A stretch of 7,202 nt of DNA from a virus. Taxonomy: Duplodnaviria > Heunggongvirae > Uroviricota > Caudoviricetes. The stretch lies in IMG/VR virus record IMGVR_UViG_2706794691_000013. One strand, given 5' to 3'. The notes under the pieces were generated by a model, which saw only the letters and a list, made by a program, of their open reading frames with translations, was not told the DNA's origin and did no database searches. Both the position numbers and the translations under genes were made by a program. Below are positions 2,881 to 5,897 of the stretch, in pieces (the first letter of the stretch is position 1; the number at the start of each line of letters is the position of its first letter).

Positions 2881-3096
2881 ATGAAATCCATGGACAAAAT
2901 TTCAACAGGCATTGCCTACGGCACCTCCGCAGGCAGTGCTGGCTACTGGTTTTTACNNNNNNNNNNNNNNNNNNNNNNNNNNNNNNNNNNNNNNNNNNNN
3001 NNNNNNNNNNNNNNNNNNNNNNNNNNNNNNNNNNNNNNNNNNNNNNNNNNNNNNNNNNNNNNNNNNNNNNNNNNNNNNNNNNNNNNNNNNNNNNNN
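2881..3096 (+). CDS. Class II holin (phage 21 S-type pinholin) with dual-start motif; interior and 3' end masked, end estimated from the 71-aa family length
   Basis: SD GGAGG (2869-2873), 7 nt before ATG 2881. N-terminus [25 protein letters not shown] matches the phage 21 S21 / E. coli EssD-type holin N-terminus (recalled), with Met1 and Met4 as the antiholin/holin starts. Lies immediately upstream of a SAR endolysin. Confidence 0.65.
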
Positions 3097-3282
3097 NNNN
3101 NNNNNNNNNNNNNNNNNNNNNNNNNNNNNNNNNNNNNNNNNNNNNNNNNNNNNNNNNNNNNNNNNNNNNNNNNNNNNNNNNNNNNNNNNNNNNNNNNNNN
3201 NNNNNNAAACTAATACCAATAATCTTTCTGCTACAGCGATGGTTATTGGAGAGCTGGGGAAGAGAGCACCGAAGGAAATATG

Positions 3283-3780
3283 ATGCAGTCATCATTACGC
3301 AAAGCTGTCACAGCTGCTATTGGTGGCGGGGCTATTGCCATAGCGTCTATGCTCATCACTGGCCCAAGTGGTAACGATGGTCTGGAAGGTGTCAGTTACA
3401 TACCATACAAAGATATTGTTGGTGTATGGACTGTATGTCACGGGCATACAGGAAAAGACATCATGCTCGGTAAAACGTATACCAAAGCAGAATGCAAAAC
3501 ACTCTTGAATAAAGACCTTGCCACTGTCGCCAGACAAATTAACCCGTACATCAAAGTCGATATACCGGAAACAACGCGCGGCGCTCTTTACTCGTTCGTT
3601 TACAACGTGGGTGCTGGTAATTTCAGAACATCGACGCTTCTTCGCAAAATAAACCAGGGCGATATCAAAGGCGCATGTGATCAGCTACGTCGCTGGACAT
3701 ATGCTGGCGGTAAGCAATGGAAAGGTCTCATGACTCGTCGTGAGATTGAGCGTGAAATCTGTTTGTGGGGTCAGCAATGA
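3283..3780 (+). CDS. SAR (signal-arrest-release) endolysin, phage 21 R-type lysozyme (GH24)
   Basis: Complete ORF. G/A-rich weakly hydrophobic N-terminal SAR helix ([23 protein letters not shown]); E-8x-D-5x-T catalytic spacing (LEG..KD..WT) falls at E35/D44/T50 if translation starts at ATG 3283 (the adjacent ATG 3280 is an alternative); near-identical to phage 21 R as recalled. Stop TGA 3778-3780 overlaps the Rz ATG. Confidence 0.9.
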
Positions 3781-4241
3781 ACAGAGTAACCGCGATTATC
3801 TCCGCTCTGGTTATCTGCATCATCGTCTGCCTGTCATGGGCTGTTAATCATTACCGTGATAACGCCATTACCTACAAAGCCCAGCGCGACAAAAATGCCA
3901 GAGAACTGAAGCTGGCGAACGCGGCAATTACTGACATGCAGATGCGTCAGCGTGATGTTGCTGCGCTCGATGCAAAATACACGAAGGAGTTAGCTGATGC
4001 GAAAGCTGAAAATGATGCTCTGCGTGATGATGTTGCCGCTGGTCGTCGTCGGTTGCACATCAAAGCAGTCTGTCAGTCAGTGCGTGAAGCCACCACCGCC
4101 TCCGGCGTGGATAATGCAGCCTCCCCCCGACTGGCAGACACCGCTGAACGGGATTATTTCACCCTCCGGGAACGACTGGTAATGATGCAGGCCCAACTTG
4201 AAGGTGCTCAGCAATACATAACCGAGCAGTGTTTAAAGTAA
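3777..4241 (+). CDS. Rz: i-spanin Rz (inner-membrane spanin subunit)
   Basis: ATG 3777 overlaps the endolysin stop (ATGA). N-terminal TM helix ([20 protein letters not shown]) followed by a periplasmic coiled-coil-like region rich in A/E/R/D/K; stop TAA 4239-4241. Confidence 0.85.
3997..4182 (+). CDS. Rz1: o-spanin Rz1 (outer-membrane lipoprotein), embedded in the +1 frame of Rz
   Basis: SD AAGGAG (3984-3989), 7 nt before ATG 3997. 61 aa with lipobox LVVVG|C and a proline-rich mature region ([16 protein letters not shown]); fully nested within Rz in a different frame. Confidence 0.85.
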
Positions 4242-4439
4242 NNNNNNNNNNNNNNNNNNNNNNNNNNNNNNNNNNNNNNNNNNNNNNNNNNNNNNNNNNN
4301 NNNNNNNNNNNNNNNNNNNNNNNNNNNNNNNNNNNNNNNNNNNNNNNNNNNNNNNNNNNNNNNNNNNNNNNNNNNNNNNNNNNNNNNNNNNNNNNNNNNN
4401 NNNNNNNNNNNNNNNNNNNNNNNNNNNNNNNNNNNNNNN

Positions 4440-5897
4440 NNNNNNNNNNNNNNNNNNNNNNNNNNNNNNNNNNNNNNNNNNNNNNNNNNNNNNNAANNNN
4501 NNNNNNNNNNNNNNNNNNNNNNNNNNNNNNNNNNNNNNNNNNNNNNNNNNNNNNNNNNNNNNNNNNNNNNNNNNNNNNNNNNNNNNNNNNNNNNNNNNNN
4601 NNNNNNNNNNNNNNNNNNNNNNNNNNNNNNNNNNNNNNNNNNNNNNNNNNNNNNNNNNNNNNNNNNNNNNNNNNNNNNNNNNNNNNNNNNNNNNNNNNNN
4701 NNNNNNNNNNNNNNNNNNNNNNNNNNNNNNNNNNNNNNNNNNNNNNNNNNNNNNNNNNNNNNNNNNNNNNNNNNNNGTNNNNNNNNNNNNNNNNNNNNNN
4801 NNNNNNNNNNNNNNNNNNNNNNNNNNNNNNNNNNNNNNNNNNNNNNNNNNNNNNNNNNNNNNNNNNNNNNNNNNNNNNNNNNNNNNNNNNNNNNNNNNNN
4901 NNNNNNNNNNNNNNNNNNNNNNNNNNNNNNNNNNNNNNNNNNNNNNNNNNNNNNNNNNNNNNNNNNNNNNNNNNNNNNNNNNNNNNNNNNNNNNNNNNNN
5001 NNNNNNNNNNNNNNNNNNNNNNNNNNNNNNNNNNNNNNNNNNNNTTATAGACTTGCAGGAATGCCTTTGTTTGATGCTATTTGTCACGGGATTTCCACAG
5101 TTTCGCTTGGTGGTTTCTCAACTCATAGCGAGAGTATCGGATATTTTAATAACTATTTGGTTGAGCTGGTGGCTGGTTCTTTTTCCCTGCTATCGGCTTT
5201 CAACTTCACTCTTTGGTATATTGTTATTAGCAGAAAAACGATAAAACCTTTAATCAGAGATATTGAACTTCGTTTCTTTCTGTTAATAGCCTTAGGGGTG
5301 ATCATTGTTACCTCTTTCCAGGTCTGGCATATAGGTATGTATGACTTGCATGGAAGTTTTATTCATTCGTTTTTTCTTGCCAGCTCCATGCTCACTGATA
5401 ATGGTTTAGCTACGCAGGATTATGCAAACTGGCCCACGCACACGATAGTGTTTTTGCTGTTGTCAAGTTTCTTTGGGGGATGTATAGGTTCAACCTGTGG
5501 TGGAATTAAGTCACTTCGATTTCTTATACTTTTCAAACAAAGCAAACACGAGATAAATCAGCTTTCTCATCCCAGAGCGTTGTTGAGTGTAAATGTAGGA
5601 GGGAAGATAGTTACAGATCGTGTAATGAGGTCTGTATGGAGTTTCTTTTTTCTTTATACTCTCTTCACGGTGTTTTTTATACTGGTGTTAAATGGTATGG
5701 GATATGATTTTCTTACATCATTTGCAACAGTGGCTGCATGTATTAATAATATGGGATTAGGTTTTGGGGCTACTGCATCGTCATTCGGAGTGCTTAATGA
5801 CATTGCAAAATATTTAATGTGCATAGCTATGATTCTTGGTCGCCTTGAAATTTATCCTGTTATTATATTGTTTTCAGGTTTTTTTTGGCGCTCCTAA
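4440..5897 (+). CDS. trkG: Trk-system K+ uptake protein TrkG (TrkH family); N-terminal part lies in an N-mask and the start is estimated from the ~485-aa TrkG length
   Basis: Frame open from the mask edge (5046) to TAA 5895-5897; the visible 284 aa (YRLAGMPLFDAICHGISTVSLGGFSTHSESIGYF...GGIKSLRFLILFKQ...LEIYPVIILFSGFFWRS) show TrkH-family motifs and match the Rac prophage TrkG C-terminal half as recalled. Confidence 0.8.
   Translation, partial: XXXXXXXXXXXXXXXXXXXXXXXXXXXXXXXXXXXXXXXXXXXXXXXXXXXXXXXXXXXXXXXXXXXXXXXXXXXXXXXXXXXXXXXXXXXXXXXXXXXXXXXXXXXXXXXXXXXXXXXXXXXXXXXXXXXXXXXXXXXXXXXXXXXXXXXXXXXXXXXXXXXXXXXXXXXXXXXXXXXXXXXXXXXXXXXXXXXXXXXXXXYRLAGMPLFDAICHGISTVSLGGFSTHSESIGYFNNYLVELVAGSFSLLSAFNFTLWYIVISRKTIKPLIRDIELRFFLLIALGVIIVTSFQVWHIGMYDLHGSFIHSFFLASSMLTDNGLATQDYANWPTHTIVFLLLSSFFGGCIGSTCGGIKSLRFLILFKQSKHEINQLSHPRALLSVNVGGKIVTDRVMRSVWSFFFLYTLFTVFFILVLNGMGYDFLTSFATVAACINNMGLGFGATASSFGVLNDIAKYLMCIAMILGRLEIYPVIILFSGFFWRS

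Follow-up and report, generated by a model that had tools for sequence, protein, structure and literature searches.

The locus studied here raised the question of what lies between the holin and endolysin genes of a prophage lysis cassette, found in a stretch of 7,202 nucleotides (the window) that corresponds to contig CWUL01000188.1 of the Shigella sonnei assembly GCA_001261395.1. The start of a holin gene could be read on one side and a whole endolysin gene on the other, with a run of Ns and a short open frame between them. The first-pass annotation had suggested that this frame was either an extra small gene inserted between S and R or the frameshifted or extended C-terminus of the holin.

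The S21-type holin gene started at 2881, and 25 codons plus 1 nt were readable up to position 2956. This fragment (2881..2956, plus strand) corresponded to the 5' part of a class II holin (pinholin) with a dual start at M1/M4, and was 100% identical to the S genes of the Rac-/Qin-type of E. coli and S. sonnei. The N run covered positions 2957..3206. After it, frame 2 contained 24 codons followed by a TGA at 3281-3283, and this stop codon was localised inside an ATGATG that provides the endolysin ATGs at 3280 and 3283. Taken on its own, an open frame of 24 codons is unremarkable, its chance of occurrence being ~30%; the frame is significant because the fragment 3207-3330 was 100% identical to an annotated holin/endolysin junction, with the identity reaching 3396. 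Nominally, 2881-3283 spanned 403 nt, which is no multiple of 3. The visible tail had no hydrophobic segment and corresponded, in the native protein, to the stretch after the second transmembrane segment.

Downstream of this frame we found an intact mosaic gene for a SAR-type endolysin of 165 aa (3283..3780, plus strand; PF00959, 154.8 bits; GenBank CSG27251.1), followed by a Rac-type Rz (i-spanin) gene at 3777..4241 on the same strand (PF03245, 179.6 bits), identical to that of the clone-mates described below, and by Rz1 (o-spanin), which the list of open reading frames placed at 3997-4182, embedded in Rz. Besides the phage_lysozyme domain (PF00959), the Gly/Ala-rich N-terminal signal-anchor-release segment typical of an R21-type SAR endolysin was present, the N-terminus being directly readable, and release from the membrane is predicted. 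Phage 21 achieves lysis with a pinholin that depolarises the membrane, a SAR endolysin that is released, and the spanins Rz/Rz1, which disrupt the outer membrane.

Judged by its sequence, the frame-2 peptide is codons 67-90 of a known 90-aa phage holin and no independent new gene. Its source is RefSeq WP_001542477, annotated as 'phage holin family protein' and, in phage PhiR46_1, as 'holin protein'. The visible DNA at 3207..3283 (plus strand) was the 3' end of a PhiR46_1/YDC107_1-type holin gene, from the second base of codon 66 to codon 90 plus the TGA, and it also held a Shine-Dalgarno-like AAGGA located 5-9 nt upstream of the endolysin ATG. The sequence bore out the frame-2 peptide and the overlap of its stop codon with the endolysin start, as reported in the first-pass annotation, but the proposed extra small gene between S and R gave way to the end of this known holin. 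The other proposal, a frameshifted or extended holin C-terminus, was correct in that the peptide is natively the long C-terminal end of a holin, but this holin is of a second type and the tail is no in-frame extension of the one that starts at 2881.

Several comparisons localised the origin of the tail in phage-plasmids. The fragment 3207-3396 was 100% identical to temperate phage-plasmids of ~46 kb (PhiR46_1/YDC107_1 type) as well as to one Shigella sonnei plasmid, and 3207-3283 was 100% identical to one locus (L001:4001-4077) and to more than 10 phage-plasmids, while in all the top database matches to rrrD-type endolysin loci the similarity started only at 3290. Among 5,426 complete E. coli genomes, the 83 nt upstream of the endolysin similarity (3207-3289) were found only on plasmids of ~46 kb and on no chromosome; within the same genome set the fragment 3207-3330 matched seven ~46-kb plasmids at 100% and one at 99.2%. 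PLSDB plasmids matched at 100% through 3420. On the ~46-kb plasmids the matching stretch formed the last part of a 273-nt gene with the annotation 'phage holin family protein' or 'hypothetical protein', the stop of which overlaps the rrrD start in ATGATG, as in the window (L001, L002, L015 and L060). The 90-aa holin gene is the annotated holin of PhiR46_1, is present in YDC107_1 and was also found on a Shigella sonnei plasmid. The PhiR46_1/YDC107_1 phage-plasmids thus share with the window, at 100% identity, the 77 visible nt together with the 113 nt of the endolysin gene that follow, as well as the TGA/ATG overlap in ATGATG and a SAR-type endolysin as the downstream partner. In contrast, they have a complete 90-aa gene located behind a DNA methyltransferase gene, whereas in the window the start of a different holin lies ~250 nt upstream, in a Rac-type prophage next to trkG, and the holin may be incomplete.

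When the tail alone was scanned, 17 further metagenome and viral loci were recovered, in which the tail was downstream of phage-plasmid-type holin sequence. It was collinear with a full-length holin gene in 16 of the 17, the remaining one being a low-coverage contig with a frameshifted copy, and an S21-type start was present within 1 kb upstream of the tail in none of the 17. The tail alone had no match in species-representative genomes, and exact-pattern scans for an S21 start, 245-255 nt and the tail found no match in species-representative genomes or IMG/VR.

The C-terminal tail was kept in homologues of the 90-aa holin from seven genera (Yokenella, Hafnia, Serratia, Yersinia and Rahnella among the sources of these homologues), and its conservation indicates that it is genuine coding sequence in its native context. 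The 90-aa holin showed 34% identity to S21 of phage 21 across both transmembrane segments and shared with it a dual start of the form M-K-x-M. The full-length donor holin was below the Pfam gathering thresholds, with 25.3 vs 28.8 bits for PF16080 (HP1 holin) and 22.0 vs 26 bits for PF04971 (P21 holin S); a precomputed protein-database table assigned PF16080 to many members of the family. Given these features, the donor protein is best described as a distant relative of class II holins and a distant homologue of S21. Chromosomal lambdoid prophages (L048:6001-6276 and L049) carried a holin gene of the same type in which codon 53 was an in-frame TAA. Its product of 52 aa (P0105) was found on more than 50 contigs, and the tail codons still followed in frame up to the lysozyme start; this gene could be a functional tail-less holin or a common pseudogene.

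The phage-plasmid-type patch was visible from 3207 to 3396 (plus strand) and was donor-type at all the sites that tell the two parents apart, the donor bases being present at 18/18 informative positions from 3287 to 3396. The right crossover interval was localised inside R, at 3397..3422 (plus strand), where 26 nt are common to both parents, between a donor-type base at 3396 and a Rac-type base at 3423. After this junction R was Rac-type from 3423 to 3543, donor-type at 3594 and 3618, and Rac-type from 3698 on. All 14 Rac-type relatives differed from the donor-type bases of the window at 3594 and 3618, and, taking the S. sonnei plasmid as donor, the Rac-type site 3612 separated these two positions; the 3594/3618 patch may reflect conversion over a very short tract, or else an artefact of the consensus. 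The mosaic endolysin allele (CSG27251.1) was found on no other contig in all indexed assemblies, and the right junction (3397-3422) was not found in the 5,426 complete E. coli genomes or in PLSDB plasmids. A search for a plasmid allele already carrying the endolysin mosaic of the window gave none, the best match having at most 97.8% identity.

Outside the tail and the first part of R, the window corresponded to a Rac-type cryptic prophage, with a DUF1133 gene, two tolA-like genes, S, R, Rz/Rz1, trkG and ynaK. The holin start, most of R and Rz/Rz1 were of the same type as the S21, R21 and Rz-Rz1 genes of phage 21 and their Rac-/DLP12-type copies (essD-rrrD-rzpD). Two clone-mates, the complete chromosome CP022457 and the sibling assembly CWZM01000012 (L054 and L051), were identical to the window at every visible base except for the tail/R patch and a 68-nt deletion. 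Both had a 71-aa S; in CP022457 the S stop overlapped the start of a 165-aa R, and in CWZM01000012 R was interrupted by an N run. The clone-mate S-R junction contained …GGTGAATAATGCCTCC…, and about 30 Rac-type loci, clone-mates included, all showed a tight S-R pair with invariant spacing. A full-length 71-aa S relative scored 118.6 bits on PF04971 (P21 holin S). The first 25 codons of the S21 ORF in the window were identical to those of the 71-aa relatives, with the remainder in the gap; foreign tail DNA separates this ORF from the R start, where it therefore cannot end.

The 68-nt deletion was localised at 251-255 of the window (2409-2481 of L054), where it distinguished the window from all relatives, and lay between the imperfect direct repeats CAGGGAAT / CAGAGAAT (imperfect CAGrGAAT). 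It split the gene for the DUF1133 protein, a Q-like late regulator, into ORFs of 52 aa and 114 aa, the 52-aa product being present only on this contig, and it looks like a genuine private change of the isolate. Upstream of the holin, tandem genes for proteins with a TolA C-terminal domain (1643-2071 and 2222-2617 of the window) were conserved in the Rac- and Qin-type late regions. In one E. coli genome (L014:5546-6774) we found a truncated R separated from S by an IS3-family element, and in another assembly (L047:1-282) a transposase fragment that abutted trkG exactly at the start of a 276-aa product.

Tight S-R junctions had been taken as the normal condition, and this was the case in phage 21 and the ~30 Rac-type loci, but the premise was too strong, because the Qin-type cassettes carry ydfR (103 aa). 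The Qin-type cassette (essQ-ydfR-rrrQ-rzpQ) has in ydfR (DUF1327) a true small gene between holin and endolysin, and has in common with the window the upstream tolA-like genes and the S start. In two Qin-type loci (L005:5227-6288 and L016:1216-2277), identity to the Rac-type was ~100% across the tolA-like genes and over the initial 78 nt of S, and the sequence diverged after this point. Unlike the window, where a piece of a holin gene intervenes, the Qin-type cassette has ydfR in this position, and its endolysin (177 aa) and Rz (DUF2514) belong to other families. An independent gene of the ydfR/DUF1327 type was considered for the window and rejected: the visible end of the ORF was a holin 3' end, the 312 nt of ydfR would not fit, and no start codon was visible.

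The N block at 2957-3206, which conceals the left junction between the two lysis cassettes, is an assembly gap of the public record and no base-for-base mask. The stored source record (GCA_001261395.1, CWUL01000188.1) had identical Ns, and the GenBank proteins deposited for this contig stopped at the N blocks, a 276-aa TrkG (CSG27256.1) starting right after one of them. Sibling assemblies of the same project showed equivalent truncated proteins, with N runs of 250-257 nt at other positions. A mask faithful in length was rejected on these grounds, the proteins stopping at the N blocks, the siblings having similar runs elsewhere and the lengths being off by 0-20 nt. N blocks were located in the window at 1284-1533, 2610-2865, 2957-3206 and 4242-5044, and others in L044, L045 and L051. 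In the project as a whole N runs measured 250-280 nt, 5 of 12 being exactly 250, and the number of real bases that they replaced was strikingly constant (241-250); their positions differed between siblings, and islands of 2 nt (AA, GT) separated adjacent runs. The blocks lay at branch points of a 1.6-kb module common to the Rac-type locus and the Qin-type loci, and the S-R gap started 2 nt ahead of position 2959, where Rac and Qin first differ.

The gap lengths were calibrated by comparing N runs of the project with gap-free clone-mates and relatives. An N run of 257 corresponded to 241 real nt, and three runs of 250 to 246, 241 and 244 nt, the last in a sibling/clone-mate comparison; within the window, runs of 250 and 256 corresponded to 250 and 244 nt, and a triple run of 799 to about 738 nt. 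The N runs are therefore estimates, 0 to about 20 nt too long per run, and every testable join of this contig and its siblings was collinear with gap-free relatives. With this calibration the S-R gap probably hides ~230-250 real nt. In contrast to phage 21 and all the Rac-type relatives examined, where a 71-aa S has its stop overlapping the R start, the window probably contains ~165-187 extra nt, with the foreign tail, between the two genes. The earlier argument from about 185 spare nt and from the reading frame is insecure, because both of its figures rest on an estimated N-run length. The first-pass annotation was right in stating that the block 2957-3206 prevents full resolution.

The hidden sequence was modelled as a simple join of two parents at varied positions. 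According to the model, a join within ~40 nt of 2956 would give a complete 90-aa second holin from near 3011, with its codons 1-65 inside the gap, behind a short S21 stub; a join at or beyond 3097 would leave the S21 holin whole and place a 3' remnant of the second holin behind it; and any join between ~40 nt past 2956 and 3097 would leave both holin genes broken. Both holins cannot be complete, because only ~230-250 nt are hidden. Weighed by geometry alone, a complete S21-type holin (ending near 3096) with a dead 3' stub of the second holin would have close to an even chance, the loss of both holin genes would be possible if somewhat doubtful, and an S21 5' stub in front of a complete second holin from near 3011 would be unlikely. 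No junction microhomology of 7 nt or more was found on the diagonals for hidden lengths of 150-261 nt, and on the nominal diagonal the longest shared run was of 6 nt and fell outside the gap; because there is no usable homology at the left junction, the left join would be illegitimate.

A Citrobacter prophage ORF of 124 aa (P0111) resembled the window in that the 3' part of this holin, with the second transmembrane segment and the tail, persisted as a stub before the lysozyme gene, and the stop/start overlap was kept. In contrast with the window, this stub was fused in frame to an upstream late-region ORF through a visible deletion, whereas the window would have an S21-type holin as the partner, joined inside the gap. 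No Rz gene was called downstream of the Citrobacter fusion ORF (L061:3001-3375).

Taken together, these results point to a real recombination between a Rac-type prophage and a phage-plasmid of the PhiR46_1/YDC107_1 type, to which we assign a probability of about 0.55. In such an event, a patch of at least 190 nt of the Rac-type lysis cassette would have been replaced by phage-plasmid DNA, bringing in the 3' part of the donor 90-aa class II holin gene and the first ~115-140 nt of the SAR-endolysin gene. The right junction would be a homologous crossover inside R (3397-3422), with a second short conversion tract at 3594-3618, and the left junction would be illegitimate and located within the assembly gap. 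The overlap seen in the donor between the holin TGA and the endolysin ATG may couple the translation of holin and endolysin. The tail DNA with its AAGGA, a plausible Shine-Dalgarno sequence, would serve as the translation initiation region of the endolysin in every scenario, and the peptide itself would be produced only if the second holin is complete.

Recombination was favoured by the location of the donor/Rac switches in contiguous sequence free of gaps, by the size of the S-R gap, which fitted the very regular behaviour of the N runs of the project, by the presence of another genuine-looking private change in the isolate, the 68-nt deletion, and by the Citrobacter ORF, a precedent for the retention of a 3' stub of the same holin. 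A physical join across the gap was also suggested by the 1,035 nt from R to Rz, which contained no gap although N blocks mark repeat branch points, and this argues against a second R copy in the isolate that could have confused the assembly. On the other hand, the arrangement was a singleton, the endolysin allele being present on this contig only among all indexed assemblies and the right junction missing from the complete E. coli genomes and PLSDB, the left junction fell exactly in the gap, and the patchy R mosaic (donor/Rac/donor/Rac) could also come from the consensus of a collapsed repeat. Phage and plasmid collections contained no record of an S21-type start followed by the tail; a search for independent assemblies of the same isolate through the mosaic endolysin and the 52-aa deletion product recovered this contig only; and literature searches on the accession and the phage names gave no matches.

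The same singletons, of arrangement and of endolysin allele, are what would be expected of a chimera of assembly or scaffolding, in which the isolate would carry an ordinary Rac-type cassette together with a PhiR46_1-like phage-plasmid, and no space between S and R would exist in the cell. By this route, which we regard as unlikely, the reads of two ~96%-identical endolysin genes would have been merged, with an overhang into the plasmid holin that was scaffolded behind the chromosomal S21 start. The contig is indeed a scaffold with many gaps that covers a repeated region of the genome, its sole hidden junction sits in a gap, R is patchy, and S. sonnei is known to carry a plasmid of the PhiR46_1 type; moreover, the N runs of the project seem floored at 250 nt (5/12 exactly 250), so that a true estimate of ~63 nt could be printed as 250. 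However, the calibrated gaps hide 241-250 nt and have collinear joins, whereas a chimera requires an outlier of 187 nt. The switch from 3396 to 3423 over 26 shared nt, and the Rac-type 3612 between 3594 and 3618, could come from a de Bruijn path only if k were at most ~26, and none of the known plasmid alleles makes the donor/Rac switches unnecessary. With a co-resident R copy, gaps should also interrupt R-Rz, a single Rac/Qin SNP having apparently sufficed for this elsewhere, and a contig end derived from the plasmid should continue into the plasmid instead of stopping at 3207.

Two further explanations were considered. One is a functional chimeric holin of ~97 aa, in which the N-terminus and first transmembrane segment of S21 would be joined in register to the C-terminal part of the second holin, for example at the shared ATCGGTGT of the second transmembrane segment. 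In its favour, the homologous holins align with each other, the N-run lengths are only estimates, and such a fusion would keep a working holin coupled to R; nevertheless, it would need only ~141 hidden nt against 250 Ns, an error of ~109 nt compared with 0-20 nt in the calibrated gaps, and the nominal distance of 403 nt from 2881 to 3283 is out of frame. A search of 5.8 billion proteins for an S21 N-terminus with this tail found none, the Citrobacter fusion ORF and variants with a frameshift or truncation matching in part, and we consider an in-frame fusion very improbable. Equally poor are the prospects of a genuine extra small gene, encoding an N-terminally truncated holin (second transmembrane segment plus tail, ~37-73 aa according to the start codon used) between a complete S21 and R that would act as an antiholin-like modulator of lysis timing. 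With a complete S21 and the nominal gap, the model opens frame 2 at an ATG at 3062 or at an internal GTG/ATG and continues it to 3283, and this ORF would be translationally coupled to R. It is, however, purely hypothetical, with no base of the putative start visible and no such protein on record in the protein search; the patch was 100% identical to the donor and gave no sign of selection as a new gene, the clone-mates lack it, and the setting is a cryptic prophage. An even slimmer chance was given to a complete S21 pinholin accompanied by an expressed truncated second holin that, coupled to the endolysin, would tune or block the triggering of the pinholin, and to the naturally evolved two-holin or antiholin-like module that this pair would constitute as a product of recombination between prophage and phage-plasmid.

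The finding at this locus is explained by a known gene together with ordinary phage mosaicism, or by an assembly artefact, and not by a new small gene. For the scanning of genomes, it indicates that an N run in a draft assembly stands for a gap whose size is only an estimate, that arguments from frame and spacing across such runs are unsafe, and that singleton mosaics beside them call for a check against the reads before any interpretation. The biological weight of the observation is small, the peptide coming from an annotated holin family and mosaic joints in lysis cassettes being a normal part of lambdoid phage evolution. If the join is real, it would represent a small, datable case in which a phage-plasmid and a cryptic prophage exchanged DNA within a very clonal species, S. 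sonnei, and it would mean that the translation start region of the endolysin travels with the 3' end of the upstream holin.
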